64,000 nucleotides of DNA from Squalus acanthias (taxonomy: Eukaryota). How positions within the stretch are numbered: the first letter of the stretch is position 1; each line of letters begins with the position of its first letter. The position numbers and the translations under genes are program-made. The stretch is from positions 35,280,001 through 35,344,000 of the forward strand of contig CM059432.1 in NCBI GenBank assembly GCA_030390025.1, given 5' to 3'. Positions 13,261-64,000 of this stretch are shown in pieces. The notes beneath the pieces are model-generated. The model saw only the letters and a program-made list of their open reading frames with translations, was not told the origin of the DNA and made no database searches.

Positions 13261-16214
13261 TAGTACAAAGGTGGAAATGGGCAGTCTTAGTGATAGAACG
13301 GATATGAGGTAAGAAGCTCAATTCGCGATCAAATATGACACCAAGGTTGTGAACAGACTTGGCCAGCCTTAGACAGTTGCCGGGGAGAGAGATCGAATCA
13401 GTGGAAAGGGAAGGGAGTTCGTGGCATGAACCGAAGACAATGGCTTCGGTCTTCCCGATATTTAACTGGAGGAAATTTCTACTCATCCAGTGCGTGATGT
13501 CGGACAGTCTGATAGTATAGAGACGGTGGAGGGTTTGAGCGAGGTGGAGGTGAGGTACAGCTGGGTATCATCAGCGTACATGTGAAAACTCACGTTTTGT
13601 TGCCAGATGATGTCACTGAGAGGCAGCATGTAGATGAGAAATAGGAGGGGGCCAAGGATAGATCCTTGGGGGACACCAGAGGTGACAGTGCGGGATCGGG
13701 AGGAGAAGCCATTGCAGGTGATTCTATGGTTACGGCTGGAAAGATAGGAATGAAACCAGGCGAGTGCAGTCCCACCCAACTGGACAACGGTGGAGAGGCG
13801 TTGGAGCAGAATTTTGTGGTCAACCATGTCAAAGGCTGCAGACAGGTGCAGAAAGACGAGAAGGGATAGATTACCTTTGTCGCAGTCAATTAGGATGTCA
13901 TTTGTGACCTTGGTAAGAGCCGTTTCGGTACTGTGGCAGGGGTGGAAACCCGATTGGAGGGATTCAATCTAGGAATTCTGGGAAAGATGGGCATGGATTT
14001 TAGAGGTGACAACGCGTTCAAGAACTTTGGAGAGGAAAGGGAGGTTGGAGATGGGGCGATAGTTTGCAAGGACAGAGGGATCAAGGGTTGGTTTTTTGAG
14101 GAGGGGGTGATGACGGCAGATTTGAAGGAAAGGGGGACAGTACCGGAGGAGAGAGAACCGTTAACAAGATCCGCTAACAGGGGAGCCAGGAAGGAAAGTT
14201 GGGTTGTCAGCAATTTAGTCGGAAAAGGGTCGAGAAAGCAGGAGGTCATCATTGACAAGATGAGCTTTGAAAGGGCAAGAGGGGAAATAGGAGAGAAATT
14301 AAAGCAATATGCAAACTTAGGGTTATGGCAGAGGGAAATGGAGAGGAAGTAAAGTCCAGTGGGCATGGGGAAGGGAGGGAATTGAAAGCAGAAGCAGTTG
14401 AACGAATGTTGTCGATCTTTTTAACAAAGAAGTCCATGAGTTCCTCACATTTATTGTTGGAGGTGAGGGAGGAGGAGGCAGGGGAGGGTGGTTTGAGAAA
14501 ATGGTTAGTATAGGAGAAGAGAAGCCTGGTGTTATTTTTGCCATCCCGGATGATCTTAGAATAGTGGCCGGTTTTAGTGATGGAGAGCAGGACCTGGTAG
14601 TGCTTTATATGATCTAGCCAAATCTGGTGATGGATGATTAGACCAGTTGTCCGCCAAAGACGTTCAAGTCTGCGTCCCTTAGACTTAAGGGAGCGGAGAT
14701 GAGGGGTATACCAGGGGGAACGACTACGGTGAGAGAGTGTCATGATTTTAGTAGGGATAAGGGCATCAAAGGTGGTGGAGAGGGTGCAATTTAGTAAGTC
14801 AGTAGCTGCAGAGATGTCATGGAGAATAGTAGGCCTAGGCTGGGTAGTTGGGAATTAGAAAGTGCAGTGGTAAGGGACTTGAGGGAGAGTTTTTTCCAGG
14901 GGCGGCTATGAAAAGAAGTGGGTTTAGGAGGGGGAAGGGGAATATGGGTAGAGAGTGATATAATGGTCGGAGATTGCCTTATCAATTACGGTTACGGAGG
15001 GGTTAGCGAGGCCACATGAGATGATAAGATCGAGGGGGTGGCCGTGGATATGGGTGAGGGAGTTGACGTGAATGTAGAGATTAAGGGAGGAAAGAAGCGC
15101 GGTGAACTCAGAGGAGAGGGAGCAAGATGAGATTAAATCACCGAGGATGAGAAGTCGCTCGGTGAAGAGGCAGAGGGAGGAAAGCAGAGAAGAGAAAATT
15201 GGTGTGGTATTTGGGTGGGCGGTACAGAATAAGGATTTTAAAAGAGAGACGTGAGGGGTGAAACAAGGTGAGATGCTCAATATATATTTCAAGTATATAT
15301 CCTTTTGAAAGTTACCATTGAATCTGCTTCAGGCAGTGCAATCCAGGTCATAACAACTTGCTGCATTAAAGAAATTCTCCTCATCTCCTCCCTCTCCTGA
15401 TTTTGCCAATTATTTTAAATCTGTGTCCTCTGATTATCAGCCCTCTGCCACTGGAAAAAGTTTCTCCCTATCTACTCTATCAAAAACGTTCATGATTTTG
15501 AACACCTCTATTATACCTCCCTTAACTTTCTCTGCTATAAGGTGAACAATCCCAGCTTCTCTAGTCTCTCCACATAACTGAAGTCCCTCATCCCTGGTAT
15601 CATTCTGGTAAATCTCTTCTGCACCCTTTTCATTTCAAATGCAATGTACCCGACTGTAAATACTGTATTATATCATTGATCTCCTTCTGTGCTGTAAGAT
15701 TCTTTCAGCCCATTGTGCCAAAGAGCTATCCAAATAGTTCCACTAAAAATATTATTTTTAATTAAGAAACCCAGATGAATAATAGCTATGCCCACAGTGC
15801 AATACCACCAGCGTCTAGTGGCCAAGTGATACTAAGCTTGACTTTTAAAAGCCTGTAGTTTGTAGGTGGAAGAGAAGTCTGAAGGAGGTGAGGGGTTCCA
15901 CGGTTGATGAGCAGGAATGAGTTAGAGCAGGGGATGGTGAGACAAGTCTTGATTTCAACACATTGAGACCACAGAGAGAAACAAGAATGTATGATGCCAC
16001 TTTTGAGGCTCAGAAGGGACAAGAGAGGAAGGTTCAGAGCAGCACTGACCATAACTACAAACCCCTTGCCTCCTTCAGACTGCCCCTTCCTATGATCTGC
16101 TAGCCTTATCTTATATATATATATATTGGTTTTCAAGATATGGGCAACCAACATGGCTGTATATTGCCCATCCCTAGATATGCAAACAACTGAGTGCAAT
16201 GCTAGGTCATGTGG

Positions 16215-16810
16215 AAACATAGGAACAGGAGTTGGCCATTTAGCCATTCAAGCCTGTTCCGCCATTCAATGAAATCATGGCAGATCTGTATTTTAACTTC
16301 ATCTACCCGCCTTGGTTCCATATCCCTTAATACCCTTGCCTAACAAAAATCTATCAATTTCAGTTTTGAAATTTTGACCTAGCCTCAACAGCTTTTTATG
16401 GGAAGAGAATTCTAGATTTCCACGACCCTTTGTGTAAAGAAGTGCTTTCTGACATCACCCCTGAATGGCCTAGCTCTAATTTTAAGGTTATGCGCCCTTG
16501 CTCTGGACTCTCCCACCAGATGAAATAGTTTCTCTCTACCTACCCTATCAAATCCTTTAATCATCTTAAACACCTCAATTTGATCACCCCATAATCTTCT
16601 ATATTCAAGGGAATACAAGCCAACTCTATGCAACCTATCTTCATAATTTAACCCCTAGCCCCGGTATCATTCTGTTGCATCTGCGCTGCACCCCCTCTAA
16701 GGCCAATATATCCTTCCTGAGGTGTACAGCTGCAACATAACTTCCACCCCTTTATATTCCAGCTCTCTTGAGATAATAACATTCCATTAGCCTTTTAAAT
16801 TATTTTTTAT
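16215..16810 (-). mobile_element. CR1 3' fragment
   Basis: ORF 16412-16633 GLYSLEYRRL.GD.IEVFK...HFFTQRVV plus CR1 3' UTR. Confidence 0.85.
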
Positions 16811-16861
16811 ACACTCATAAGTATTCCAGACTAGGGTTAACAGTCTGGAGGACAATAGTAA

Positions 16862-17312
16862 AAAAAAAAGACTCGCATTTATATAGCTCCTTTCATGACC
16901 TCAGGATATCCCAAAGCGCTTTACACCCAATTAAGTACTTTTTGAAGCCACTGTTGTAATGTAGGAAACTCAACAGCCAATCTGCACACAGCAAGGTCCC
17001 ACAAAAAGCAATGAGATAATAACCAGATAATCGGTTTTAGATAATTGGTTGAGGGATAAATTTTGACAGGACTTTTGGTAGAACTCCCCAACTCTTATAG
17101 TTAGCAATAAAGCCATGGGATCTTTTACGTCCATCTGAGAGTGCAGACGGAGTCTCGGTTTAACGCCTCAACCAAAAGACGGCACCTCTGACAGTGCAGC
17201 ACTCCCTCAATACTGGAGTGTCAGCCTGGATTATATGTTCAGGTCTCTGGAGAGGAACTTGAATCCACAAGCTTCTGGCTCAGAGGCAAGAATGCTACCC
17301 ACTGAGCCAGTT
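16862..17312 (-). mobile_element. Deu-domain SINE copy
   Basis: Colinear with 33066-33532. Confidence 0.75.
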
Positions 17313-18034
17313 GGATTTTTAAAATAACAGTCTGCCAACTTTGATGGTTATTTTTCTGGTGCTAACCCATAGATTTATTGAATTTAATTTCACAATTTGC
17401 CATGGTGGAACCTCTGTGTTACTGGTTCCAATACCATAATCACAACACTAGTGTACCAGTCTTACAAAAAATCACTTTGCTGTTACCTAGTCACTATGTC
17501 AGGGATTACCTTGTCTTCACTTCAACAATTTTCAATCTTCGATCTATGGATCTCAAAGCCTCAACCGGCTTTCTCAATAAAAATACAGAGCAGTAAAATA
17601 GAAAGATTCATTTACTCTGAATTAATGAATGGAGTGCCACAGCCCTTTAGAGGGAGTGGTGAAAAAAATGGTTGAACGGAAAGAAATTCATAAGAAGGGA
17701 AATGTAACTTTTATTTCCAGACCTGCTAGAACATTCCCATCAAAGAATAACAAAATCAATACAAGAGAGACCTTGGAATGTAATGAGCTTATTCCCATCA
17801 GGGGACCATCTCGTGTTCAGTTAACAATATGCAAGTGCTGTACACATCAACTGGCTTCCCATGAAATGTCTGCTTTAAACAATCACTCAGCAGCTAGATT
17901 GTTACTCAGGCACTCCAGTTGCATTAGGAGGAAGCCCCTTAATTTAAGTCAGGGCTAGGATTTTAATGAGTCCAGCACTCTGCTTTGCTGGAAGGACGTA
18001 ACAGGCACAGAGTAGGACTCAGACCTCAGGCCTC

Positions 18035-19802
18035 TTGTTTTCTTTTTATTCGTTTATGGGATGTGGGCATTGCTGGCAAGGCCAGCATTTATTGCCCATC
18101 CCGAATTGCCCTTGAGAAGGTGGTGGTGAGCCACCTTCTTGAACCGCTGCAGTCCGTGTGGTGAAGGTACTCCCACAGTGCTGTTAGGTAGGGAGTTCCA
18201 GGATTTTGACCCAGCGACGATGAAGGATCGGCGATATATTTCCAAGTCAGAATGGTGTGTGACTTGGAGGGGAACTTGGAGGTGGTGATGTTCCCATGCG
18301 CCTGCTGCCCTTGTCCTTCTAGGTGGAAGAGGTCACGGGTTTGGGAGGTGCTGCCGAAGAAGCCTTGGCGAGTTGCTGCAGTGCATCTTGTAGATAGTAC
18401 ACACTGCAACCACAGTGCGCTGCTGGTGCAGGGAGTGAATTTTTAAGGTGGTGGATGGGGTGCCAATCAAGCGGGCTGCTTTGTCCAGAATGGTGTCGAG
18501 CTTCTTGAGTGTTGTTGGAGCTGCACTCATCCAGGCAAGTGGAGAGTATTCCATCACACTCCTTACTTGTGCCTTGTAGATGCTGGAAAGGCTTTGGGGA
18601 GTCAGGAGGTGAGACACTCGCCACAGAATACCTAGCCTCTGACCTGCTCTTGTTGCCACAGTATTTATGTGGCTGGTCCAGTTAAGTTTCTGGTCAATGG
18701 TGACCCTCAGGATGTTGATGGTGAGGGATTTGGTGATGGTAATGCCGTTGAATGTCAAGGGGCGGTGGTTAGACTCTCGCTTGTTGGAGATAGTCATTGC
18801 CTGGCACTTGTGTGGCGCGAATGTTACCTGCCACTTATCAGCCCAAGCCTGAACGTCGTCCAGGTCTTGTTGCATGCAGACATGGACTGCTTCATTATCT
18901 GAGGAGTTGTGAATGTCACTGAACACTGTGCAGTCATCAGCGAACATCCCCATTTCTGACCTTCTGTTGGAGGGAAGGTCATTGATGAAGCAGCTGAAGA
19001 TGGTTGGGCCTAGGACACTGCCCTGAGGAACTCCTGCAGCGATGTCCTGGGGCTGAGATGATTGATCTTCAACCACCACAACCATCTTCCTTTGTGCTAG
19101 GTAGCACTCCAGCCAGTGGAGAGTTTTCCCTCCGATTCCCATTGACTTCAGTTTTACTAGGGCTCCTTGATGCCACACTCGATCAAATGCTGCCTTGATG
19201 TCAAGGGCAGTCTCTCTCACCTCACCTCACCTCTGGAATTCAGCTCCTTTATCCATGTTTGGACCAAGGATGTAATGAGGTCGGGAGCCAAGTGGTCTTG
19301 GCAGAACCCAAACTGGGCATCAGTGAACAGATTATTGGTGAGTAAGTGCCGCTTGATAGCACTGTCGATGACACCTTCCATCACTTTGCTGATGATTGAG
19401 AGTAGACTGACGGGGCGGTAATTGGCCGGATTGGATTTGTCCTGTTTTTTGTGGACAGGACATACTTGGGCAGTTCTCCACATTGTCAGATAGATGCCAG
19501 TGTTGTAGCTGCACTGGAGCAGCTTGGCTAGAGGCGCTGGAGCACAAGTCTTCAGCAGGACAGCCGGGATGTTGTCGGGGCCCACAGCCTTTGCTATATC
19601 GAGTGCGCTCAGCCGTTCTTGATATCACGTGGAGTGAATCAAATTGGCTAAAGACTGGCTTCTGTGATGATGGGGTCCTCAGGAGAAGGCCGATATGGAT
19701 CATCCACTCGGCACTTCTGGCTGAAGATGGTTGCAAACGCTTCAGCCTTGTCTTTTGCACTCATGTGCTGGGCTCCACCATCATTGAGGATGGGGATATT
19801 CA
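18035..19802 (-). mobile_element. 5'-truncated copy of the same LINE family (RT and 3' end)
   Basis: ORFs 18333-19220 and 19217-19585 are nearly identical to those at 55062-55957 and 60979-62558; same 3' tail. Confidence 0.88.
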
Positions 19803-23178: not shown

Positions 23179-23574
23179 CTTATAAATAAGGATAAACTAT
23201 TGCCACTGGCAGTAACCAGAATACACAGATTTAAGATAATTAGCAAAAGAACCAGAGGGGAGATGAAGAGAAATGTTTTTACTGATACCAGCTTTTTATT
23301 TCCAAAATTAAAAAAATTGAATTGAAATTCTCAAACAGCCATGAATTGAACTCACATTCACTATAATTATCCAATCAGGCCTTTATTAGATTACTGGTCC
23401 AGTGACATAACCAACACACTACCATACCCACAAATACCAACCCTGCTCCTTTTAAAGTTGTCAATTCACCCAAATCGACTCTCCTCTCTGGCAGTCAGTT
23501 CCACATCCACCATCCAGTGGGGGGAGAAAAAAGTTTTTCTAATGCGCGAGGCTTGTGAATTTTCTACATATCCT

Positions 23575-26384: not shown

Positions 26385-27080
26385 TTTGCTCTCAGGATGT
26401 GGGCTACGCTGGCAAAGTTATGTTTATTGCCCATCCCTTGTTACAGTGGTGGACTTTTTTCAGCACAGAGGTTGTCTTACAACTGCGTGGTTTGCTCTGC
26501 CACTTCAGAGGGCAGCAAGGGTCAACCACATAGTGCAGAACTGGAGTCACGTGCAAACTTGGTAGGGATGGCAGTCCCCTTCGCTGAAGGACATTAGTGA
26601 CCTAGTTGCATTTTTACGACAATCTGGCAGCTTCATAGTTATTTTTCTGGTGCCAGCTCATAAATTACCAGATTTATTGAATTCGCAGCACAGAAACAGG
26701 CCTTTTGGCCCAACTGGTCTGTGCCAGTGTTTATACTCCATTCAAGATGACTCCCACTCTAATTACCTCTATCCCACCCTGCCCGCATATCCTTAAATTC
26801 CCTTCTCCCTCACGCATGCACCAAGCCTCCCCTTAAATGCATCAATGCTCTCTGCTCAACCACTCCATGTGGCAGCAAGTTCCACATTTTCACCACTCTG
26901 TGTAAAGACATTTCCTCCTAAATTCTTTATTTGATCCATTAGTGGCTATCTGATATTTATGCCCCCTTCTTCTGACTCACCCACAAGTGGAAACAGTTTC
27001 TCAATGTCCAATTCTGATTCTACCATGGTGGGATTTGAACTCAGAATCTGTAGGCTGCTAGTCCAGTTCCATAACCAGGC
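26385..27080 (-). mobile_element. 5'UTR+3'tail SINE copy split by a CR1 3' fragment (~26686-27005)
   Basis: Tail and body at 26390-26685; head (gggatttgaactc...gctagtccag...ataacca) at ~27010-27080; CR1 3' sequence between them. Confidence 0.65.
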
Positions 27081-27597
27081 TAATGAAAACCAATTCCACA
27101 AACAATCATAAGGATAAGAACCTGCGTCAGAGGAACACCAACTAAACCTTGGTTGTCAGAACTTTGGATTTCTGACGAACATGTCATTATCTACATTATG
27201 TTACACTAGGCTACTGTACCCATAATCCTCCATTGTTACACCCACTGACTTGCATTGGGGTACAATTCCACGGCTTCTACAAACCTGTAGTGCCTTGTGT
27301 AAGTGAGACTTGTGTGTGAGACTACAGAGGGAGTCTGCAACCATCACTACAGAGACTATTTGCAACCGTCACAGCCATAGCCTGATCTTGGTCTGATGTC
27401 AAAATATGCACACGCACACGCACACTTTGCTGCAGGGGCCTCTATATACTATCCAGGGGCATCATCCACCCTGGCTGATTTCTTTCCCCTTCCCAAGCCC
27501 AGCAATGTTGAGATCAATTATGGTATCAGCCTTGGCTCAGTGTTGGCACTCTCGCCTGAGTCAGAAGGATACGGGCACAAGCCCCACTCCAGAGACA

Positions 27598-30915: not shown

Positions 30916-31060
30916 CTCTGATGGGGAAAATAATTCCTTCTTCGGAATCCTTCAATCCCCCCCCAACCACCCACCATCCGATCTGTTTTCAGATTTGCAC
31001 ATCTTTCAACCCCTAAAAATCCAGTAGATTGTCTTTTTAAAATTCTTAAATCTAGATGAG

Positions 31061-38481: not shown

Positions 38482-38810
38482 GGGGCATGGTAGCCTCGTG
38501 GTTATGGTGCTGGACTAGCAACACAGATAGTTGTGAGTTCTAAATCCCACTACAGCAAGCTGTGAAAATAAATCTGGTAATTTGTGGGCAGGCGCCAGAA
38601 AATGACTGAAATCTGCCAGATTGTTGTAAAAATCTAACTGGTTCACTAATGTCCTTCAGGGAAGAGAACTTGCCACCCCTACCTGGCCTGGTCCTATGTG
38701 TGACTCCAGTTTCACACTACATGGCTGACTCTAAATGCCCTCAAGCAACCTAGGGTGGGCAATAAATATATCCTTGCCAATGTTGCCCACATTTCAAAAG
38801 CAAAAAAAGA
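38482..38810 (+). mobile_element. Another copy of the 5'UTR+3'tail SINE
   Basis: ggcatggtagcctcgtggttatgg...gagttctaaatccc...ctggttcactaatgtccttcagggaag...gcaacctagggtgggcaataaat...gcccacat. Confidence 0.75.
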
Positions 38811-45200: not shown

Positions 45201-45418
45201 CTGTGTAACTCACTCCAAACACGCACTATCCCCTGTGTAACTCACTCCAAACACGCACTATCCCCTGTGTAACTCACTCCAAACACCCACTATCCCCTGT
45301 GTAACTCACTCCAAACACCCACTATCCCCTGTGTAACTCACTCCAAACACCCACTATCCCCTGTGTAACTCACTCCAAACACCCACTATCCCCTGTGTAA
45401 CTCACTCCAAACACCCAC
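45201..45418. repeat. 32-bp minisatellite, ~7 copies; older degenerate units at ~44650-44795
   Basis: ctgtgtaactcactccaaacacccactatccc. Confidence 0.93.
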
Positions 45419-46489
45419 AGAGCACATTTAATCTATTAATTGAATCCCAATTTTCCCATTTTTATCTGCAGCCCCAACATTACTGAGAAAGGCGGCAATG
45501 CACAGACTTTCAAGCCAGAGAAATTAGCAGGTCTCCAGGTCTAGAGAAACCCCCAATCAGCGACCAAATGTCACCCTTTCAACATGCTGTGGTTTTGACA
45601 TGCGATCCTCTATGTAACTCATTTCCAGCTCCAGGTACCTATTAGTACAGACACTTGCTCCTCCCTGTATCCTCAGTGTTGAAATTAAAGCTCATCGCAC
45701 TGTCTCCCACTCTGACTTATTCTTTCCCAGCACCTCAAAACAGTAGAACTCGTTACCTCCCTCAATATTCCTTTTCCCCTACAATCTGCAGGGTTTTAAT
45801 TCCCAAGTATGGTGCCATCTAAACACGATTTCCTCTTTCAACCTAACCTTTCCTACTACTTTTCACAACCTTAGCGGTGTCCTGCACTCTGGGCCATGGC
45901 TCATCACCTTAGCTGCTCATAAAGTATTATGATGATATTCATGCTCACTGGCATGTTGTATATTTTTCTTATATTTCTATTTATATAGCAGCTCATCATG
46001 TTGTCCACGTGTCCCAGTGCTGTGACTGATATGCAGGGAAATACAGCAGCCATTTTGTGCCAGGAACACCCCACAGACACCATGGTGTTCAGTTTTGTCC
46101 TCCCCTCTTTGAGACATCTTTCTGTGCCGGAGGAGAGCTACAGAAATGTTCTTTGTTGCTCTGATGATAGGCTAATTAACCTGCTTTGGGTTTTTTGGTG
46201 ATGTTGGTTGAGTGATAAATGTTCGAATAGTGCCACAGGATCTTTTAAGTCCACCTGAACAGGTAGATGGTGATGTGGCTTAATGTTTTGTTTGAAAGCT
46301 GGCACCTCTGACAATGTAGCATTCCCTCAGTACTGCACTGGATTGTCAGCCTAAATTATACCCGGTGTGGACTTCAAGCCCTCTGACCAAGAAGCAAAGC
46401 TCCTACCCAACTGAGCCAAGCTGACACATTTCATTCAGTTATCTTTTAGATAAACTATGGCACACTTTGCTTTCCTGGCAACTAAAGAA

Positions 46490-46936
46490 ATATCTTGCAT
46501 TTATATAGCGTCTTTCATGACATCAAAACATCCAAATCGCTTTACAGCCAATGAAGTACTTTTTTTAAATGCAGCCACTGTTATAATGTAGGAAACATGG
46601 CAGCCAATTTGTGCACAGCAAGGTCCCACAAACAGCAATGAGATAAATGGCCAGATAATCCATTTTGGTGGTGTTGGTTGAGAGGTAAATGTTGGCTAGG
46701 ACACCGGGAGAACTCCCCTGCTCTTCTCCGAAAAGTGCGGCGGGATATTTTACGCCACCTGAGAGGTCAGACAGGGCCTCGCTTTCTGAAGGATGGGACC
46801 TCCAACAGTGCAGCACTCCCTCAGCACTGCACTGAAGTGTCGGCCTAGATTTTTGTGCTCAAGTCACGGGAGTGGAGCTTGAATCCACAACCGTCTGGCC
46901 CTGAGGCAAGTGTGCTACCACTGAGCCACGGCTGAA
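46490..46936 (-). mobile_element. Deu-domain SINE copy (a more degenerate copy is adjacent at ~45980-46426)
   Basis: Colinear with 33066-33532. Confidence 0.75.
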
Positions 46937-48400: not shown

Positions 48401-49427
48401 AATATATAATTAATCCCTGCCTGGGTAATAACTGAAAGAGATGACTCAATTGGAAAGGAAACTGCAAACGTCAGAAATCGGAAATAAAATATTTTTAAAT
48501 GCTCAGCAGGTCTGCCAGCGACTGGAAAGAGGCGAGCTGTGTTAACATTTCAGGCAGGCATCCTTCGCCTGACGCACACTCGAAAAATTCATCCGCCTTT
48601 TCAGACTCTGTACATCCTTCGCACTTTTTTTTTTAATTAGAAAGCCGTCGGGCAGAATTTCTCAGATAGTGAGTGCAAGACATGTAGGACAATACAGGAA
48701 AGGCAGGGGCTGAGCTTGGGCCTGCTTGTGTCAGAGGGGTTGTACCTGTTCATGTGTGAACAGGGGGCAGTGGGTTATTTCTGTTCTATTCAAACCCTCA
48801 TTATAAAATGTTACCAACAACAACAACTTGCATTTATATAGCGCCTCTAACATAGTAAAACTTCCCAAGGAGCTTCACAGGAGCGTATCAATCAAAGCAG
48901 GGGAGGCCAATATTTATCCCTCAACCAATACCGCTAAAACAGATTCTCTGGTCATTTATCTCAGTACTGTTTGTGGGATCTTACTGTGCGTGAATTGGTG
49001 TTTACAACAGTGACTTCACTTCAAAATTACATCATTAGCTGTGAAGCACTTTAGGATATCGTATGGTCATGAAAGGTGCTATGTAAATGCAAGTTCATTC
49101 TTATTAATTCAGAAAAACAAAACAAAATGGATTCTGTTAGTTACTAGCTCCATTCCCTCCCACTCCAACATCCACCCTCGCTACTTACCTCATATCCAAA
49201 ATCTATGTTTCTTTTTCCTCCTTTTTCTCCCCTCCTCCCAGGGTTATGGCTGAATGGCACTGGCATCTGCCCAGTACATTGCCTATTTCTCACGAGGCAG
49301 ACTGCATGATGAGTGTCAGTGGGATATTTGACCATGGGGGGTGTCCAGCATCTGTGAGTGTGCATTTCTAATGGGGATCATTGGATAGGAACCCTGCCTG
49401 ATTTTTCTACCCCTGGGAACTTCCTTT

Positions 49428-49790
49428 TTTTAAAAATTAATTCTCAGAATGTGGATGTCGCTGAAAAGGCTGGTATTTATTGCCCATCCCTAGTTGCCCT
49501 TGAGAAGGTGATGATAGGCCTTCTTCTTGAACCGCTGAAGTCGATGTGGCGAAGGTGCTCCGATAATACTGTTAGGTTATGAGTTCCAGGATTTTGACCT
49601 AGCGACGATAAAGGAATGGCAATATATGTCCAAGTCAGGATGTGACTTGGAGGGGAACTTGGAGGTGATGGTGTTTCCATGCGCCTGTTGTCCTTCCCCT
49701 TTGAGGTAATGGAAGTCATGGGATTGAGAGGTGCTGCCGAAGAAACCTAGGTGAGTTGATACAGTGTATCCTATAGATTGTGCACACTAT
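49428..49790 (-). mobile_element. Older 3' fragment of the same LINE family
   Basis: Diverged match to 18050-18410 (tail tttattgcccatccctagttgcccttgagaaggtg). Confidence 0.75.
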
Positions 49791-49982: not shown

Positions 49983-50342
49983 TTTTTTTTCGTTCTCAGG
50001 ATGTGGGCGTTGTTGATAAGGCTGGCATTTATTGCCCATCCCTAGTTGCCCAGGTTTGATACAACTGAGTGGCTTGCTAGGCCACTTAGAAGGCAGTTAG
50101 GAGTCGACCATATGTGTGGGGCTGGAGTCACATATAGGCCAGACCAAGTAGGGACATCAGGTTTCCTTCTCTAAAGGACATCAGTGAACCAGTTGAGTTT
50201 TTACAACAATCCAATAGTTTCATGGTCACTTTTACTAATACCAGAAACTGAATTCAAATTTTCAAACTGCCATGGTGAGCTTTGACCTCACGTTCCCCGG
50301 ATTATTAGTCCAGTCGCATAATCACTGCACTACCATACCCTT
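49983..50342 (-). mobile_element. tRNA-headed SINE consisting of the 5' UTR + 3' tail of the single-ORF LINE
   Basis: Reverse complement reads gggtatggtagtgcagtg..ctggactaataatcc..., follows the LINE 5' UTR to ccactcagttgtatcaaac, then joins directly to the LINE 3' tail gggcaactagggatgggcaataaatg...gcccacatcc. Confidence 0.8.
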
Positions 50343-51532: not shown

Positions 51533-53738
51533 TTTGTCTTTTTCTTTCCTTTCATTTCCTCCTTTAGCTCTGATTCCCAAATGCATAGTAAATGGTGGTT
51601 CTTTGGGCTACTATCTCATCAGCTGGCCTTGGAGTTCTGCCAAGTCAGGCACCATTTCCTATGCCCTGCCCCGCGCTGTATGATGTACTAGAGAATGAGG
51701 AATTGGGGATTTTGTGGGGAAAGCAAAAGGACCGCAGCCTGGAGACAACATCTCCAAACCCCCAAGGAGAAAGTCACCCCATCCAACGTCAAAACTTCTG
51801 TCATTGTTAAATTGAGAAACCAAGGTGAAGGTTCAAGTGCAGGAAGAGAGTAGGAGAGAAGACATAGTAACTCAGGAACTGTGAAAAGGTGAAAATGGGT
51901 GAGGAAAGCGAGCAGTTCTAGTTTTTTAAGGCCTGGGAATGAATGAGCTGTGTGCAATTCAGTTCAGCACAGTGAGGCTGTAAAATATATTGATTTCATT
52001 TTTAGAAGAGTTTTCTTTCTTTAATTTTATATATTCTTGGAATATTTATGCTTATTAAGTTCAGCGAATGGAACATTCTTAATTTTTCTCACCCAATGTT
52101 AGCACAGAACATAAGAACATAAGAAATAGGAGCAGGAGTCGGCCATTTTGCCCTTCGAGCCTGCTCCGCCATTCAATACGATCATGGCTGATCTTCTACC
52201 TCATCTCCACTTTCCTGAACTATCCCCATATCCCTTGATTCCCTTAATATTCAAAAATCTATCGATCTCTATCTTGAATATACTCAACAACGAGCCTCCA
52301 CAGCCCTCTAGGGTAGAGAATTCCAAAGATTCACCACCCTCTGAGTGAAGAAATTTCTCCTCATCTTTGTCCTAAATGGCCGACCCCTTATTCTGAGACT
52401 GTGACCCCTGGTTCTAGACTCCCCAGCCAGGGGAAACACCCTCCTTGCATCTACCTTGTCAAGCGCTCTAAGAATTTTGTATGTTTCAATGAGATCACCT
52501 CTCATTCTTCTAAACTCTAGAATAGAGAATATAGGCCTAGTCTACTCAATCTGTCCTCATAGGACAATCCCCCCATCCCAGGAACCAGTCTGGTGAACCT
52601 TCGTTGCACTCCCTCTGTAGCAAGTATATCCTTCCTTAGGTAAGGAGACCAAAACTTTGCACAATACTCCAGGTGTGGTCTCACCAGGGCCCTATATAAT
52701 TGCAATAAGACGTCTTTACTCTTATACTCAAATCCTCTTGTAATAAAGGCCAACATACCATTTGCTTTCCTAATTGCTTGCTGTACCTGCATGTTAACTA
52801 TCAGTGATTTGTGTACAAGGACACCCAGGTCCCTCTGAACACCAACATTTCCTAATCTCTCACCATTTAAAAAATAATCTGCTTTTCTATTTTTCCTATC
52901 AAAGTGGATAACTTCACAAGGGAACGGAAGTGTAGTGGTAATGTCACTGGGCTAGTAATCCAGAGGCCTCGACTAAAGATCCAGAGATGTGAGTTCAAAT
53001 CCCACCACGGCAGCTGGGGAATTTAAATTAAGTTAATTAAATAAATCTGGAATAATTACTAGTATCAGTAATGGTAACCATGAAACTATCGGATTGTCAT
53101 AAAAACCCATCTGGTTCACTAATGTCCTTTAGGGAAGGAAATCTGCCGTCCTTACCAGGTCTGGCCTATCTGTGACTCCTGACCCACAGCAATGTGGTTG
53201 ACTCTTAACTGACCCTCTGAAATGGCCCAGCAAGCCACTCAGTTGTAACAAACTGCTACAAAAAACAATAAAAAGAATGAAACCGGACGGACCGCCCGGC
53301 ATCGACCTCCGCATGGCAACGGCACACCCAGCCCAGTCGACCCTGCAAAGTCCTCTTCACCAACACCTGGGGCCTTGTGCTAAAATTGGGAGAGCTGTTC
53401 CATAGACTAGTCAAGCAACAACCTGACATAGTCATACTCACAGAATCATACCTTTCAGCCAATGTCCCAAACTCCTCCATCACCATCCATGGGTATGTCC
53501 TGTCCCACCGGCAGGACAGACCCACCAGGGGTGGCGGCACAGTGGTATACAGTTGGGAAGGAGTGGCCCTATGAAGTCTCATGGCTTCAGGTTAAGCATG
53601 GGCAAGGAAACCTCCTGCTGATTACCACCTAGCGCCCTCCCTCAGCTGATGAATCACTATTCCTCCATGTTGAACACCACTTGGATGAAGCACTGAGAGC
53701 AGCAAGGGCAGAGAATGTACTCTGGGTGGGGGACTTCA

Positions 53739-54015
53739 TAAAATTATAGAAAGTTACAGCATAGAAGGAGGCCATTTCGGCCCATCGTGCCCGCGCCGGC
53801 CAACAAAGAGCTAACCAGCCTAATCCCACTTCCCAGCTCTTGGTCCATAGCCCTGCAGGCTACCACATCCAAGTACTTTTTAAATGTGGTTAGGGTTTCT
53901 GCCTCTACCACCCTTTCAGGCAGTGAGTTCCAGACCCCCACAACCCTCTGGGTGAAGAAATTTCTCCTCAAATCCCCTCTAAACGTTCTACCAATTACTT
54001 TAAATCTGTGCTTCA
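53739..54015 (-). mobile_element. Short CR1 3' fragment nested in the tRNA-headed LINE
   Basis: MRRNFFTQRVVGVWNSLPERVVEAE; host gacttca duplicated on both sides. Confidence 0.8.
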
Positions 54016-54713
54016 GACTTCAATGTCCATCACCAAGAGGGGCTCGGTAGCACCATTACTGACCGAGCTGGCTGAGTCCTGAAGGACGTAACTGCCAGTC
54101 TGGGCCTGTGACAGGTGGTGAAAGAACCAACATGAGGGAAAAACCTACTTGACCTCGTCCTCACCAATCTACCTGTTGCAGATGCATCTGTCCATGACAG
54201 TAATGGTAGCAGTGACCACCGCACAGTCATTGTAGAGACAAAGTCCCATCATCACACTGAGGACACCCTCCATCGTGTTGTGTGGCACTACCACCGTGCT
54301 AAATGGGATAGATTCAGAACAGATCTAGCAGCTCAAAACTGGGCATCCATGAGGCCTGTGGGCCATCAGCAGCAACAGAATTGTATTCCACCACAATCTG
54401 TAACCTCATGGCCCGGCATATCCCTCACTCTACCATTACCATCAAGCCAGGGGACCAACCCTGGTTCAATAAGGAGTGTAGAAGAGCATACCAGGAGCAG
54501 CACAAATGAGGTGCCAACCTGGGGAAGCTGCAAAACAGGACTACATGCATGCTAAAAAGGAGAAGCAGTATGCTATAGACAGAGCTAAGCGATCCCACAA
54601 TCAACAGATCAGATCAAAGCTCTGCAGTCCTACCACATCCAGTCGTGAATGGTGGTGAACCATTAAACAACTAACAGGGAGGAGGAGGCTCCATGACTAT
54701 CCCCATCCTCAAT

Positions 54714-54859
54714 AGAAACATAGAAAAATAGGAGCAGGAGTAGGCCATTCGGCCCTTCAAGCCTGCTCCGCCATTCAATATGATCATGGCTGATCCTCTA
54801 TCTCAATATCATATTCCCGCTCTCTCCCCATACCCCTTGATGCCTTTTGTGCCTATTGT
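54714..54859 (-). mobile_element. CR1 3' UTR fragment nested in the tRNA-headed LINE
   Basis: agaaacatagaaaaataggagcaggagtaggccattcggccc..., the CR1 tail seen throughout the window. Confidence 0.8.
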
Positions 54860-56122
54860 CAATGATGGTAGAGCCCAGCACGTGAGTGCAAAAGACAAGG
54901 TTGAAGCGTTTGCAACCATCTTCAGCCAGAAGTGCCGAGTGGATGATTCATATTGGCCTCCTCCTGAGGTCCCCACCATCACAGAAGCCAGTCTTCAGCC
55001 AATTTGATTCACTCCACATGATATCAAGAAATGGCTCAGCGCACTGGATACAGCAAAGGCTATGGGCACTGACAACATCCCGGCTATCGTGCTGAAGACT
55101 TGTGCTCCAGAACTAGCTGTGCCTCTAGTGAAGCTGTTCCAGTACAGCTACAACACTGGCATCTATCCGACAATGTGGAAAACTGCCCAGGTATGTCCTG
55201 CCCACAAAAAGCAGGACAAATCCAACCCGGCCAATTACCGCCCCATCAGTCTACTCTCAATCATCAGCAAAGTGATGGAAGGTGTCATCGACAGTGCTAT
55301 CAAGCGGCACTTACTCACCAATAACCTGCTCACTGATGCCCAGTTTGGGTTCCGCCAAGACCACTCGGCTCCCGACCTCATTACAGCCAGAGGTGAGGTG
55401 AGAGTGACTGCCCTTGACATCAAGGCAGCATTTGACCGAGTCTGGTATGAAGGAGCCCTAGTAAAACTGAAGTCAATGGGAATCGGGGGGGAAAACTCGA
55501 CTGGCTGGAGTCATACCTAGCACAAAGGAAGATGGTTGTGGTGATTGAAGATCAATCATCACAGCCCCAGGACATCACTGCAGGAGTTCCTCAGGGCAGT
55601 GTCCTAGGCCCAACAATCTTCAGCTGCTTCATCAATGACCTTCCCTCCAACATAAGGTCAAAAATGGGAATGTTTGCTGATGACTGCACAGTGTTCAGTG
55701 CCATTCACAACTCCTCAGATAATGAAGCAGTCCATGCCCGCATGCAGCAAAACCTGGATGACGTTCAGGCTTGGGCTGATAAGTGGCAGGTAACATTCAC
55801 GCCACAGAAGTGCCAGGCAATGACTATCTCCAACAAGCGAGAGTCTAACCCCACCATCAACATCCTGGGGGTCACCATTGACCAGAAACTTAACTGGACC
55901 AGCCACATAAGTACTGTGACGACAAGAGCAGGTCAGAGGCTAGGTATTACTTCCTGACTCCCCAAAGCCTTTCTAGCATCTACAAGGCACAAGTAAGGAG
56001 TGTGATGGAATACTCTCCACTTGCCTGGATGAGTGCAGCTCCAACAACACTCAAGAACCTCGACACCATCCAGGACAAAGCAGCCTGCTTGATTGGCACC
56101 CCATCTACCACCTTAAACATTC

Positions 56123-58095
56123 TCTTCTTCTCTTCGGCAGTCCCTGTGAACTGAGGATGACTTGCTTCCACATTAAAAATGAGTTCTCCGGTGACTGATG
56201 AGTCCAATGCGAGACCTACAGTCTCTGTCACAGGTGGGGCAGATGGTGGTTGAAGGGGCGGGTGGGTGGGGTGCTTGGGTTGACGTGCGCTCCTTGTGTT
56301 GCTTGCGCTTGGTTTCCACTTGCTCCCGGCGAAGAGACTCGAGGTGTTCGGCGCCTTCCCGGATGCTTCTCCTCTACTTTGTGCGGTCTTGGGCCAGGGA
56401 TTCCCATGTGTCATTGGGGATGTTGCACTTTTTCAAGGAGGCTTTGAGGGTGTCCTTGAAGCGTTTCCTTTGCCCACCTGGGGCTCTCTTGCCGTGCCGG
56501 AGCTCCGAGTAGAGCGCATGTTTTGGGAGTCTCGTATCGAGCATGCGGACGATGTGACCCGTCTATCGGAGCTGATCGAGCGTGGTCAAAGCTTCGATGC
56601 TGGGGATGTTGGCCTGAGCGAGAACACTGACGTTGATGCGCCTATCCTGCCAATGGGTTTACAGGATCTTGCGGAGACAGCGTTGGTGGTACCTCTCCAG
56701 TGCTTTGAGGTGCCTGCTGTACATGGTCCATGTCTCTGAGGCATACAGCAGGGCGGGTATCACTGCTGCTCTGTAGACCATGAGCTTAGTGCCGGGTTTG
56801 AGGTGCTGGTCTTCAAACACTCTCTTCCTCAGGCGACCGAAGGCTGCACTGGCACACTGAAGGCGGTGTTGGACTTCGTCATCGACGTCTGCCCTTGTTG
56901 ACAGTAGGCTCCCGAGGTATGGAAAGTGGTCCACGTTGTCCAAGGCCTTGTCGTGGATTTTGATTATTGGGGGGCTGTACTGTGTGGTGGGGGCAGGTTG
57001 GTAGAGGACCTTTGTCTTACGGATGTTTAGTGTAAGGCCCATGCTCTCGTACGCTTCGGTGAATGTGTTGACGATGGTTTGGAGTTCGACCTCCGAGTGA
57101 GCGCAGACACAAGCGTCGTCTGCATACTGTAAATCGACGACAGAGGATGGGACGACCTTGGATCTGGACTGGAGGTGACGGAGGTTGAACAGTTTCCCGT
57201 TAGTTCTGTAAATTAGTTCCACTCCAGCAGGGAGCTTACTGAGGGTGAGATGGCGCATTGCAGCAAGGAAGATCGAGAAGAGCGTTAGTGCAATGACACA
57301 GCTTTGCTTGACCCCGGTCCATACGTGAATTGGGTCTGTGGTGGAACCGTTGGTCAGGATCACGGCTTGCATGTCATCGTGAAGCAGGCGGAGGATAGTG
57401 ACAAACTTTTGAGGGCAGCTGATTTGAGGAGGACACTCCATAATCCCTCACGGTTGACAGTGTCGAAGGCCTTTGTGAGATCAAAGAAGACCATGTACAG
57501 CGGTTGGTGCTGTTCCCTGCATTTCTCTTGTAATTGACGCGCGGTGAAGATCATGTCCATTGTGCCCCTTAGTGGGTGGAATCCGCATTGTGACTCTGGG
57601 AGGAGCTCTTCGGCCACTGGGAGAAGGCAATTGAGGAGGATTCTTGCGATGACTTTCCCTGTGGCAGACAGCAGGGAAACTCCTCTGTAATTACCGCAGT
57701 CGGACTTGTCACCTTTCTTGAAGATGGTCAAAATTACGGCGCCACTGAGATCCCCTGGCATGCTCTCCTCCTTCCAGATAAGAGAAATTAGTTCATGAAT
57801 TCGCGCCAATAGTGCTTCTCCGCTATGCTTTAGTGCCTCGGCAGGGATTCCATCTGCTCCTGAGGCCTTGTTGTTCTTCAGTTGTCGGATGGCCTTTCCA
57901 ACCTCATGCTGGGCTGGGGTTGTGCTGAGATGGTGGCGGGTAGCATGCTGCGGGATGGAGTTGAAGACAGAGTCTCGGTTAAGGAGATCTTCGAAGTGCT
58001 CCTTCCAGCGGGCACTGACTGCCTCTCTGTCCTTGATGAGTACCTCTCCGTTCTTGGCCCGCAGTGGGGTAGGACCTTGGGTGCTTGGGCGATAG
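56123..58095 (-). mobile_element. RTE-clade (BovB-like) LINE, 5'-truncated, inserted in the tRNA-headed LINE
   Basis: ORFs 57360-57809 (KGDKSDCGNYRGVSLLS, LPESQCGF) and 56659-57441 (LQYADD). (GAA)-type 3' tail at 56123-56133. Host attc duplicated at 56119-56122 and 58096-58099. Confidence 0.88.
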
Positions 58096-60066
58096 ATTCA
58101 CTCCCTCCACCACCGGCGTACCGTGGCTGCAGTGTGTACCATCTACAAGATGCACTGCAGCAACTCACCAAGGTTTCTTCAGCAGCACCTCCCAAACCCG
58201 TGACCTCTTTCACCTAGAAGGACAAGGGCAGCAGGCGCATGGGAACACCACCACCTCCAAGTTCCCCTCCAAGTCACACACCATCCTGACTTAGAAGTAT
58301 ATCGCTGATCCTTTATCGGTGCTGGGTCAAAATCCTGGAACTCCCTACCTAACAGCACTGTGGGAGTACCTTCACCACACGGAGTGCAGCGGTTCAAGAA
58401 GGCGGCTCACCACCATCTTCTCGAGGGCAATTAGGGATGGGCAATAAATGCTGGCCTTGCCAGCGACGCCCACATTCCATAAACAAATTAAAAAATAGAT
58501 AATTCTCCACATTATATTCCATTTGCCATGTTCTTGCCCACTTACTTAGCCTGTCTATATCCCCTTGAAGCCTCCTTGCATCCTCCTCACAACTTACATT
58601 CCCACCCAGCTTTGTATCCTCAGCAAAGTTGGATATATTACATTTGGTCCCCTCATCCAAATCATCGATGTAGATTGTGAATAGCTGAGGCCCAAGCACT
58701 GATCCTTGCGGTACCCCACTAGTTACAGCCTGCCAACCCGAAAATGACCCATTTATTCTTGCTCTCTGTTTTCTGTCTGTTAACCAATTCTCAATCCATG
58801 CTAGTATATTACCCCAATCCCAGGAGCCCTAATTTAGTTTAATAACCTCTTGTTTGGCACCTTATCGAATGCCTTCTGAAAATCCAAATACACCACATTA
58901 TCTATTCTGCTAGTTACCACCTCAAAAAACTCTAATAGATTTGTCAAACACGATTTCCCTTTCATAAATCCGTGTTGACTCTGCCCAATCCTATTATTAT
59001 TTTCTAAGTGCCCTGATACCACGTCCTTAATAATAGATTCCAGCAAACTGGTCTGTAGTTCCCCGTTTTTTTCTCTCCCTCCTTTCTTAAATAGTGGGGT
59101 TACATTTGCTACCTTCCAATCCGCGGGAACCGTTCTAGAATCTATGGAATTTTGAATAATGACAACCAATGCATCCACTATCTCTATAGCCAACTCTTTC
59201 AAAACCCTAGGATGTAGGCCATCAGGTCCAGGGGATTTATCGGCTTTCAGTCCCATTAATTTCTCCAGTACTACTTTTTTACGAATACTAATTTCTTTCA
59301 GTTCCTCATTCTCACTCGACCCTTGGTTCTCCACTATTTCCGGGAAGATTTTTGCGTCTTCGTCCGTGAAGACAAACACAAAGTATTTGTTTAATTTTTC
59401 TGCCATTTCCTTATTCCCAATTATAATTTCTCCCGTCTCAGCCTGTAAGGGACCTACATTTACTTTGGCTTATATTTTCCTTTTTACATACCTATAGAAG
59501 CTTTTACAGTCTGTTTTTATGTCTCTCGCTAGTTTACTCTCATTCTATTTTCCCTTTCATCATCAATTTCTTGGTCCTCCTTTGCTGAATTCTAAAATCC
59601 TCCCAATCCTCAGGCTTACTACTGTTTTTGGCAACATTATAAGCTTCTTCCTTTGATCTAATACTATCTTTAACTTCTCTTGTTAGCCACGGTTGAACCA
59701 CTTTTCCTGTGGGGTTTTTGTGTCTTAAAGGAATGTATATTTGTTGTAAATTATGTATTAATTCTTTAAATGCTAGTCATTGCTCGTCCACTGTCATACC
59801 TTTTAATGTAGTTTCCCAATCTACCTTAGACAACTCGCCCCTCATACCTACGTAGTTTGCTTTGTTTAGATTTAAGACTCTAGTTTCGGATTTACCTAAG
59901 TCACTTTCAAACTCAATATAAAATTCTATCATATTATGGTTACTCTTTCCTAAAGGCCCCTTTACTACAAGGTTATTAATTAACTCTTTCTCGTTGCACA
60001 ATACTAGATCTAAAGTAGCCTGTTCCCTAGTTGGTTCCTCAACATACTGATCTAGAAAACTATTAG

Positions 60067-60780: not shown

Positions 60781-60912
60781 TTCCCCCTGTCATAAAGTCA
60801 AGAGTGGAGCTGTTCACTGCCGATTCCAGAGTGTTCAGCTCCATTCACAATTTCCCTGATGGCGAAGGAGCCGTTGCAAGCTAATAACCATCTCGACAAA
60901 AAAGCCCAGTCA

Positions 60913-63900
60913 TTTCTTTTTTTAATTTGTTCATGGGATGTGGGCGTCGCTGGCAATGCCAGCATTTATTGCCCATCCCTAGTTGCCCTTGAGAAGGTGG
61001 TGGTGAGCCGCCTCCTTAAACCGCTGCAGTCTGTGTGGTGAAGGTACTCCCACAGTGCTGTTAGGTAGGGAGTTCCAGGATTTTGACCCAGCGATGATGA
61101 AGGATTGGCAATATACTTCTAAGTCAGAATGGTGTGTGACTTGGAGGGGAACTTGGAGGTGGTGGTGTTCCCATTCGCCTGCTGCCCTTGTCTTTCTAGG
61201 TGGAAGAGGTCGCGGGTTTGGGAGGTGCTGCCAAAGAAGCCTTGGCGAGTTGCTGCAGTGCATCCTGTAGATGGTACACACTGCAGCCACGGTACACCGG
61301 TGGTGGAGGGAGTGAATGTTTAAGGTGGTGGATGGGGTGCCAATCAAGCGGGCTGCTTTGTCCTGGATGGTGTCGAGCTTCTTGAGTGTTGTTGGAGCTG
61401 CACTCATCCAGGCAAGTGGAGAGTATTCCATCACACTCCTTACTTGTGCCTTGTAGATGGTGGAAAGGCTTTGGGGACTCAAGAGGTGAGACACTCGCCT
61501 CAGAATACCTAGCCTCTGACCTTTTCTTGATGCCACAGTATTTATGTGGCTGGTCCAGTTAAGTTTCTGGTTAATGGTGACCCCCAGGATGTTGATAGTG
61601 GGGGATTCGGCGATGGTAATGCCAATGAATGTCAAGGGGAGGTGGTTAGACTCTCGCTTGTTGGAGATAGTCATTGCCTGGCACTTCTGTGGCGTGAATG
61701 TTACGCGCCACTTATCAGCCCAAGCCTGAATGTCATCCAGGTCTTGTTGCATGTGGGCATGGACTTCTTCATTATCTGTGGAGTTGCGAATGGCGCTGAA
61801 CACTGTGCAGTTATCAGCGAACATCCCCATTTCTGACCTTATGTTGGAGGGAAGGTCATTGATTAAGCAGCTGAAGATGGTTGGGCCTAGGACACTGCCC
61901 TGAGGAACTCCTGCAGCGATGTCCTGGGGCTGTGATGATTGACCTTCAACCACCACAACCATCTTCCTTTGTGCTTGGTATGACTCCAGCCAATAGAGAG
62001 TTTTCCCCCCGATTCCCATTGACTTCAGTTTTACTAGGGCTCCTTGATGCCAGACTCGGTCAAATGCTGCCTTGATGTCACTCTCACCTCACCTCTGGAA
62101 TTCAGCTCCTTTGTCCATGTTTGGACCAAGGCTGTAATGAGGTCGGGAGCAGAGTGGTCTTGGCGGAACCCAAACTGGGCATCAGTGAGCAGGTTATTGG
62201 TGAGTAAGTGCCGCTTGATAGCACTGTCGATGACACCTTCCATCACTTTGCTGATGATTGAGAGTAGACTGATGGGGCAGTAATTGGCCGGGTTGGATTT
62301 GTCCTGCTTTTTGTGGACAGGACATACCTGGGCAGTTTTCCACATTGTCGGATAGATGCCAGTGTTGTAGCTGTACTGGAACAGCTTGGCTAGAGGCACG
62401 GCTAGTTCTGGAGCACAAGTCTTCAGCACGATAGCCGGGATGTTGTCGGGGCCCATAGCCTTTGCTGTATCCAGTGAATTCAATTGGCTGAAGAATGGCT
62501 TCTGTAATGGTGGGGACCTCGGGAGTAGGCCGATATGGATCAGCCTTGTCTTTTGCACTCACGTGCTGGGCTCCACCATCATTGAGGATGGGGATATTCT
62601 TGGAGCCTCCTCCTCCCGTTAGTTGTTTAACGGTCCACCACCATTCACGACTGAATGTGACAGGACTGCAGAGCTTTGATCTGATCCGTTGATTGTGGGA
62701 TCGCTTAGCCCTGTCTATAGCATGCTGCTTCCACTTTTTAGCATGCATGTAGTCCTGTGTTGCAGCTTCCCCAGGTTGGCACCTCATTTTTAGGTACGCC
62801 TGATGCTGCTCCTGTACACTCGTTGTTGAACCAGGGTTGGTAATGGTACAGTGAGGGATATGCCGGGCCATGAGGTTACAGATTGTGGTGGAATACAATT
62901 CTGCTGCTGGCCCACAGCGCCTCATGGATGCCCAGTTTTGAGCTGCTAGATCTGTTCTGAATCTATCCAATTTAGTACAGTGGTAGTGCCACACAACACG
63001 ATGGAGGGGGTCCTCAGTGTGAAGACGGGACTTCGTCTCCACAATGACTGTGCAGTGGTCACAGCTACCAATACTGTCATGGATAGATGCATCTGCGACA
63101 GGTAGATTGGTGAGGACGAGGTCAAGTAGGTTTTTCCCTCGTGTTGGTTTCTCTCACCACCTGTCACAGGCCCAGACTGGCAGCTATTGTCCTTCAGTAC
63201 TCAGCCACTCTTGGTGATGGACATTGAAGTCCCCACCCAGAGTACATTCTGTGCCCTTGCTACTCTCAGTGCTTCTTCCAAGTGGTGTTCAACATGGTGG
63301 AGTACTGATTCATCAGCTGAGGGAGGGCAGTAGGTGGTAATCAGCAGGTTGTTTCCTTGCCCATGCTTGACCTGAAGCCATGAGACTTCATGGGGTCTGG
63401 AGTCAATGTTGAGGACTCCCAGGGCCACTCCTTCCCGACTGTATACCACTGTGCCACCGGTGGGATAGGACATACCCAGGGATGGTGATGGAGGAGTTCG
63501 GGACATTGGCTGAAAGGTATGATTCTGTGAGTATGACTATGGCAGGCTGTTGCTTGACTAGTCTGTGGGACAGCTCTCCCAATTTTGGCACAAGTCCCCA
63601 GATGTTGGTGAGGAGGACTTTGCAGGGTTGACTGGGCTGGGTGTGCGTTGTCGTGTCCGTAGCCGGTGCCGAGGTTGATGCCGCGTGGTCCGTCCCGTTT
63701 CATTCTTATTATTTTGTAGCGGTTAGTTACAACTGAGTGACTTGCTGGGCCATTAAGTCACATATAGGCCAGACCAAGTAAGGATGGCAGATTTCTTTCC
63801 CTAAAGGACATTAGTGAACCAGATGGGTTTTTACGACAATCCGATAGTTTCATGGTTACCATTACTGATACTAGCTTTTTATTCCAGATTTACTTAATTA

Positions 63901-64000
63901 ACTGAATTTAAATTCCCCAGCTGCCGTGGTGGGATTTGAACTCACATCTACTGGATCATTAGTCCAGGCCTCTGGATTACTAGCCCAGTGACATTACCAC
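60913..64000 (-). mobile_element. Second copy of the tRNA-headed single-ORF LINE (head cut by the window edge)
   Basis: Same head (reverse complement of 63925-64000) and same ATG context (63703, MKRDGP vs MKPDGP). APE/RT ORF fragments 63201-63506, 62194-63042, 62034-62558 and 60979-62019, the last ending HHLLKGN*. Confidence 0.88.

Follow-up and report, generated by a model that had tools for sequence, protein, structure and literature searches.

A 359-nt SINE of Squalus acanthias, lying on the minus strand of the 64,000-nt stretch of DNA analyzed here (the window), is read by us, with moderate confidence, as a SIDE, an internally deleted short derivative, whose parent was a Zenon LINE with a tRNA-derived head of its own, the deletion having been repeated. 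An initial reading of the sequence alone had proposed that head, body and tail are all common to this SINE and the LINE and that the ORF alone is missing, and alignment bears this out. The 5′ regions of LINE copy 1 (52968-53253) and copy 2 match the SINE at 75% identity over 287 columns (E = 2e-50) and 74% over 212 columns (E = 3e-36), respectively, and its final 69 nt match four LINE 3′ ends at 79-88% over 59-73 nt (blastn). The body by itself is 83-86% identical to the LINE with gap columns left out, its score being reached by 0 of 500 shuffles, so that the likeness extends well beyond tRNA boxes and tail. The SINE stays LINE-like up to 50053, has one T at 50052 without counterpart, and restarts at the final Gly-Asn-stop codons, which is the junction originally described, the break falling after LINE position 53253.

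By its size, its lack of coding sequence and a tail shared with a LINE at 79-88%, the element is a SINE; homology of its 5′ and 3′ parts to one LINE whose middle is gone gives it the layout of a SIDE as well. Amplification as a unit is indicated by four tailed copies in the window and by joints that recur in three runs, the exact junction of the 359-nt element having been seen once. An anticodon-like stem folds in the tRNA-like head, which lacks an extra arm of ~21-25 nt present in the window's LINE heads. The stem-loop fold scores z = −2.7 in the LINE tail and z = −0.9 in the SINE tail. No significant target-site duplication was found at any of four elements tested.

Table 1. Zenon-type LINE copies, SINE copies and SINE parts in the window.
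Feature	Position	Strand	Remarks
SINE, whole element	50341 (head) to 49983 (A tail)	-	359 nt
SINE head, tRNA-like	50268..50341	-	B-box-like motif at 50289-50279
SINE body	50053..50267	-	collinear with LINE 5′ region as far as LINE position 53253
SINE tail	49983..50051	-	last codons of LINE ORF (Gly-Asn-stop), 3′ UTR stem-loop, A-rich end
Older-type SINE copy	38483..38810	+	head+body profile 38483-38744; junction ~45 nt earlier in body
Older-type SINE copy, split by CR1 3′ piece	26385..27092	-	profile 27085-27010 and 26688-26477
Older-type SINE copy in two halves (probable)	16117..17453	-	17453-17302 and 16243-16117
Old head remnant with long extra arm	23276..23430	-	head+body profile 23429-23276; SINE or LINE origin not distinguishable
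LINE copy 1, Zenon type, full length	52919..58495	+	head and 5′ region 52919-53276; APE-RT ORF to TAG 58432-58434
LINE copy 2	60913..64000	-	head cut off by window end; RVT_1 E = 2e-23
LINE copy 3, 5′-truncated	18039..19801	-	88% to copy 2
LINE copy 4, old 5′-truncated fragment	49421..49788	-	tail variants resemble those of the SINE; tail 88% to SINE over 59 nt (blastn)

The window LINE has the features of a Zenon parent, namely no ORF1, a single APE-RT ORF, an A tail and a length of about 3.3 kb. In a 32-row reverse transcriptase tree, which includes no named Zenon, it lies apart from the CR1, L2 and RTE elements of the window and among single-ORF relatives. A 17-nt body motif matches six rows of the consensus table of PMC13343379, all of them elasmobranch Zenon, and the copy 1-type 5′ end is, by eye, almost identical to SquAca_Zenon-1. 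Judging from these motif matches and from the by-eye identity of the 5′ ends, the window LINE appears to be the elasmobranch Zenon of Stuart et al. 2026; the portion of PMC13343379 available to us reports ORF1-less, A-tailed Zenon solely from elasmobranchs, coelacanth and hagfish. Copy 1 holds three later inserts (about 53739-54015, 54714-54851 and 56131-58095), all skipped by contigs of other organisms; the third is an RTE-type LINE fragment in minus orientation, the coding strand of which is likewise poor in T runs (two T4 in 1967 nt). An old rearranged fragment (60181-60494 and 60780-60877), about 69% like the Zenon reverse transcriptase region and split by a Deu-type SINE, lies beside the 3′ end of copy 2.

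The junction had also been placed ~25 nt before the LINE ATG: the site stands, and the quoted ATG (53277) is doubtful as the ORF start. The endonuclease motif starts about 110 nt past the shared 5′ region, and in both decayed LINE copies the first ATG past that region (53277, plus strand; 63703, minus strand) is out of frame with it, as is the same ATG, by eye, in the published ray consensus. Across this codon lies an ATG-free, Arg-rich frame that resembles the basic leaders found in relatives P0002-P0004. A non-AUG codon or a frameshift may open the ORF, unless the out-of-frame ATG reflects decay. LINE reverse transcriptase pieces also occur inside three annotated shark proteins (P0099, P0181 and P0217, named as FERM-domain, proteasome chaperone and JmjC isoforms), which bear names from Heterodontus and Heptranchias and are either exonised repeats or annotation errors.

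Head and body open all seven elasmobranch Zenon consensuses of PMC13343379 (first 400 nt, by eye), that is, seven of its 10 Zenon rows, from Squalus (three), Carcharodon, Rhincodon, Scyliorhinus and the ray Hypanus. By the same inspection they are found in none of the three hagfish and coelacanth consensuses, the coelacanth 5′ end being of low confidence. The head+body profile likewise matched none of 80 metagenome loci with related ORFs, many of which are distant or without a 5′ end; in L001, the nearest of them at 40% identity, the upstream region lacks a B-box pattern and the ORF contains 20 T4 runs. The body motif had no match in viral or prokaryote contigs, and the LINE protein profile none in viral contigs. 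Head and body thus appear to have been gained by the LINE, because they are absent from 3/3 hagfish and coelacanth consensuses and from 80/80 metagenome loci; on these comparisons the head seems fixed in shark and ray Zenon and is unlikely to be an inheritance from Zenon at large. According to Table S4 of PMC13343379, Zenon-masked DNA makes up 0.018% of Callorhinchus, 0.056% of Latimeria, 0.7% of Hypanus and Leucoraja, 4.4% of Squalus and 6.8% of Carcharodon; as the portion of the paper available to us does not name the masking library, these shares are no more than a hint that neither the headed LINE nor the SINE is abundant in chimaera. The extra arm of the LINE head (52965-52990) is a hairpin, both stem sides of which differ between the Squalus and galeomorph consensuses and which is absent from the ray consensus (all by eye); the stem differences may represent compensatory change. 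As the source of the arm we also weighed a duplication; the hairpin that galeomorph consensuses have at this site is a different one.

Head+body and tail profiles each located eight segments in the window, the latter comprising four LINE and four SINE tails; both profiles were built from these copies and are partly circular. The SINE copies previously noted at 38482-38810 and 26385-27080 were recovered in this way. Two further segments, at ~17310-17450 and ~23280-23430, had been described as head-only remnants, and both are present; the 17.3-kb one includes a stretch of the body and probably forms the leading half of a copy now in two pieces, whose rear half, at 16243-16117, has a body match (E = 0.03) and a tail profile match. 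The two halves are separated by a Deu-type SINE and a CR1 piece. All four tailed SINEs differ in their junctions, with exits from the 5′ region at about 53208, 53246 and 53253 and at or after 53247, and with different entry points into the tail. At the junction, the 38483..38810 copy shows a 3-nt microhomology (by eye), and the 26385..27092 copy has 38 nt without significant likeness to the LINE on either side (356 and 654 of 1000 shuffles). The extra arm is absent from four of the five SINE heads in the window. We considered whether the 23.3-kb head belongs with LINE copy 3 and gave the idea up (identity about 70% versus 93%).

Similar joints occur in other organisms. Four runs were mapped on LINE copy 1 at 80% likeness, three of contigs (X1, organism A; X13, organism E; X17, organism F) and one of raw reads (X22), and 15 of 9275 joints and 12 of 495 bridged joints were listed. 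Among the 15, eight skip private inserts, two are small deletions and one is a 43-nt step back in the head; the other four comprise two that connect the 5′ region's end with the ORF's end, and two that lead from within the ORF to near the 3′ end. Among the joints listed, 53246 to 58424 occurs in eight contigs of X1 and 11 of X13, and 53247 to 58396 in four, two and one contigs of X1, X13 and X17, respectively. The ORF-internal deletions, 55102 to 58400 and 55584 to 58332, were each listed in one contig, at depths of 1138 and 698 versus 9-107 for the listed single contigs. The bridged joints listed include 53244 to 58432 in X13 and 53259 to 58427 in X1, the latter with 39 ORF-end-like letters in between. 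All UTR-to-tail breakpoints fall within two narrow zones, 53208-53259 and about 58388-58432, and microhomology at read joints on copy 1 is 0-1 nt. In the X22 raw reads of another organism, 264 reads mapped and no joint was found. Depth in the bin that holds the body (53088-53275) versus the next bin was 2.1M versus 0.98M, 0.96M versus 0.20M and 31.5k versus 3.4k in the three contig runs, an excess of 2 to 9 times that is not a measure of copy number and that fits a surplus of short elements. Nine X1 contigs step back 43 nt over 52919-52961, so that some copies tandemly duplicate the first part of the head.

The three young LINE copies differ from one another by K2P 0.06-0.09 and from the body of the 359-nt SINE by 0.17-0.19; the older-type SINE bodies, at 0.33-0.41 from the LINE, are the most diverged carriers of the body. 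LINE fragment 49788-49421 lies 0.21-0.24 from copies 1-3 and has tail variants like those of the 359-nt SINE. The observation that the SINE is more diverged than the LINE copies is therefore correct for the three young copies and fails for this fragment, and the argument drawn from it, that a SINE-first origin stays open, is weak: divergence alone does not favour that order, because LINE relatives as old as the SINEs exist. At columns where two older SINEs agree, the 359-nt SINE sides with the LINE in 22 (about five of them in poorly aligned spots), sides with the older SINEs in 10 and is unique in 20. A by-eye comparison with the seven published LINE 5′ ends divides the 10 older-SINE columns into two whose state recurs in galeomorph or ray Zenon, one private to copy 1, four ambiguous ones and three at odds with every published end or with every one except one. 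The SINE body would, on account of these three columns, have branched before or beside the known Zenon consensuses. The 359-nt SINE would not be a recent cut from present-day Zenon and looks like an offshoot of an older Zenon subfamily or of a donor lineage, five copies being too few to root the tree. The two origins first put forward, a deletion derivative and a SINE that captured the ORF, are both real options and do not form an either-or: the probable course is a single gain of the LINE's head, from a SINE-like donor, followed by repeated shedding of SINEs.

According to the deletion model, the LINE would in an earlier step have acquired head and body from a SINE-like RNA by template switch, in early elasmobranchs, and the A-rich stretch at 53260-53276 may be the former A tail of the donor. 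During reverse transcription, the LINE enzyme would then jump from the ORF's end to where the 5′ region ends (template jumping). Because the product keeps both the internal promoter and the enzyme-bound tail, it would be a working SINE at once, transcribed from its head and copied in trans by the APE-RT protein of the LINE; copying of SINE RNA by the reverse transcriptase of a partner LINE through a shared tail is established (reviewed in PMC4824008 and PMC5786205). Such deletion would have taken place more than once, and the Zenon subfamily that gave rise to the 359-nt SINE would be older than that of the three young LINE copies.

We favour deletion because the window SINEs contain no segment clearly foreign to the LINE, because there are several breakpoints, ORF-internal ones included, because no SINE tail precedes the ORF, and because the butterfly Zenon described in PMC6740152 provides a precedent. 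The differing junctions of all four tailed copies and the recurrent joints in contigs of other organisms support it, and the heads on 7/7 elasmobranch consensuses, the 22 versus 10 columns siding with the LINE and the equally old LINE fragment that shares the tail variants of the SINE also argue for it. Against it, the differing junctions could be nested trimmings of a single old SINE. The confinement of breakpoints to two narrow zones, the three columns unlike published LINE 5′ ends and the 38 unmatched junction nucleotides of the 26.4-kb copy likewise seem to speak against it, and within the window no LINE ORF is attached to an older-type head, copy 4 being 5′-truncated. On this side, too, are the listing of 15 of 9275 joints at 80% likeness, the lack of a joint in 264 X22 reads and the microhomology of 0-1 nt. 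A lone deletion, suffered by one genomic LINE copy once it had been inserted and with no SINE family behind it, would agree with an exact junction not seen again among the four window copies or the listed joints and with the lack of a target-site duplication; this is nevertheless very improbable, as 64 kb hold four elements of this layout, numerous contigs from different organisms share the same junctions, and the body bin has 2 to 9 times the depth of its neighbour in three runs (again not copy number).

The order of events may also have been reversed, an ordinary tRNA SINE borrowing a Zenon tail and a template switch later setting its head and body before the Zenon ORF, so that the 359-nt copy would descend from the donor lineage. 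We regard this as possible, if doubtful. It accords with the lack of head and body in the 3/3 hagfish and coelacanth consensuses and the 80/80 metagenome loci, so that the LINE would have gained them, and indeed the LINE must have obtained its head from some SINE-like donor; the 359-nt copy is itself old and has some states in common with the older SINEs, the older-type SINEs are the most diverged body carriers, two of them being interrupted by other repeats, and bivalve Zenon elements, in the account of PMC11481361 available to us, are tail partners of ordinary SINEs. However, it requires the LINE to take up the whole non-tail part of a SINE, an end-to-end jump would leave a SINE tail before the ORF where none is found, and the ORF-internal deletions stay unexplained. 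Callorhinchus, with a Zenon-masked share of 0.018% versus 0.7-6.8% in four elasmobranchs (masking library not stated), offers no hint that an older SINE is abundant there. Compared by eye with a published alignment, the body bears a faint collinear resemblance to the Deu domain, which would make the body of SINE origin and the first step a capture if it were true, but it is not significant in 12 tests against a Deu-type consensus (34 to 987 of 1000 shuffles, no profile match) or in 20 pairwise tests with Deu-type copies from the window itself, the best of which gave 45 of 300 shuffles. Membership among MetaSINEs was rejected, the 66-bp Meta domain not following the head in a by-eye comparison with the published consensus. 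Alternatively, shared 5′ and 3′ ends might let template switching or gene conversion move modules both ways, with no single direction. The 359-nt copy does look mosaic, its short head and some body states being older-SINE-like and other blocks window-LINE-like, and module exchange is documented for SINEs (PMC5786205, PMC7245038); we consider it unlikely here, since plain subfamily succession yields the same pattern and five copies cannot show recombination.

A B-box-like motif, a likeness only, is present in 3/3 heads, an A-box pattern matched 0/3, and the Rfam tRNA match to the homologous LINE head is weak (18.4 bits versus a gathering threshold of 29). Of the predictions that ARAGORN made at a lowered threshold, 181 fell in the window and 24 in the metagenome loci; we discarded them as noise. 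The 359-nt SINE contains no T4 run, nor do the sense strands of the three young LINE copies (3088, 3203 and 1763 nt), compared with six and 11 in two CR1 copies and two in the RTE. With codons controlled, T3 runs in the young LINE copies number 5, 10 and 6 versus 15, 18 and 15 expected (p at most 0.009), these copies not being independent and some segments crossing frameshifts. Under the same control T4 scarcity is borderline (p 0.02-0.10), the sole T4 in the segments of copy 1 falling in an insert, and on stop-free segments it is not significant (p 0.13-0.36). None of eight control elements is low in T3 and one, L011, is low in T4 (p 0.03). From the head we infer Pol III transcription of the headed LINE, with which the scarcity of T runs would be compatible without proving it.

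The window is otherwise repeat-rich vertebrate DNA. A separate abundant SINE family with a tRNA-like head and, by eye, a Deu-like body occurs at 16857-17313, 33065-33525, 46479-46929 and 1696-2100 (all minus), at 60490-60781 (plus) and as fragments; one copy splits an older-type, Zenon-tailed SINE. This family has a probable L2 tail, is most likely of SacSINE1 type and shows no cross-match with the family of the 359-nt SINE. A stop-free frame of 3135 codons at 2090-11497 (minus), acidic and of low complexity, is probably one giant host exon, the end of which we take to be a NACA-like region. Tandem arrays lie at 31057-31653 (period about 80 nt) and 45197-45418 (period about 64 nt).

The closest known parallel comes from Lepidoptera, where CR1-Zenon repeatedly sheds Persaeus SIDEs with several origins and variable breakpoints, as described in the part of PMC6740152 available to us. 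There too, a parent single-ORF Zenon of ~3.3 kb gives rise to a derivative, of 260-390 nt, that keeps the 5′ end, the ORF end, the 3′ UTR and the A tail. Persaeus, however, is described there as having no tRNA homology or Pol III promoter, whereas the shark parent and derivative both start with a tRNA-like head, which is why the shark derivative is formally a SINE. The shark SINE works like Persaeus, yet with its small-RNA head it is not a Persaeus element. The bipartite SINEs of RTE and Vingi elements (Bov-tA, Mar-1, AfroSINE and SINE2-1_ACar), the only LINEs for which this mode of formation was found, resemble it in having a body from the LINE 5′ UTR and a tail from the LINE 3′ end, but there the tRNA head came later, as a second step after the deletion, and the LINE itself is headless (PMC5786205). 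The shark case is thus bracketed by bipartite SINEs, to which the head was added afterwards, and by headless Persaeus. Known tRNA-headed chondrichthyan SINEs such as SacSINE1 and the CmiSINEs differ in that, in the portion of PMC5499810 available, their bodies are Deu or CORE and their tails L2. One-off tRNA/LINE-1 chimeras are mostly antisense halves in what was available of PMC13174262, and the available part of PMC10468316 mentions SacSINE1 and HE1 alone. The elasmobranch Zenon of PMC13343379 is, like the window LINE, ORF1-less, A-tailed and ~3.3 kb long, but neither head nor derived SINE is described in the main text, which makes no mention of tRNA, promoter or polymerase and contains the word SINE once, in a reference. 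Our search of the accessible literature found no description of the 359-nt SINE or of a tRNA head on Zenon; the SINE may have an entry in Repbase, Dfam or SINEBase. With repeat libraries, these SINEs are probably being masked as fragments of LINEs.

In models of how SINEs arise, a LINE first undergoes deletion and a small-RNA head is then added (PMC5786205), which makes two steps, whereas a headed LINE needs one; since the parent LINE itself starts with a tRNA-like promoter, one deletion may suffice for a working SINE. Were Pol III to make the LINE, a coding retrotransposon would be using a polymerase believed to serve non-coding transcripts. Being abundant and present in sharks and rays, the family allows the direction of change and the source of a SINE body to be tested on public genomes. 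More speculatively, and as a picture that we put forward only tentatively, elasmobranch Zenon might be an autonomous coding LINE transcribed by Pol III from a captured SINE head and translated without a cap, perhaps without an in-frame AUG, which would have been kept throughout shark and ray history as a SINE factory working by one-step deletions, in a cycle from SINE to LINE and back.
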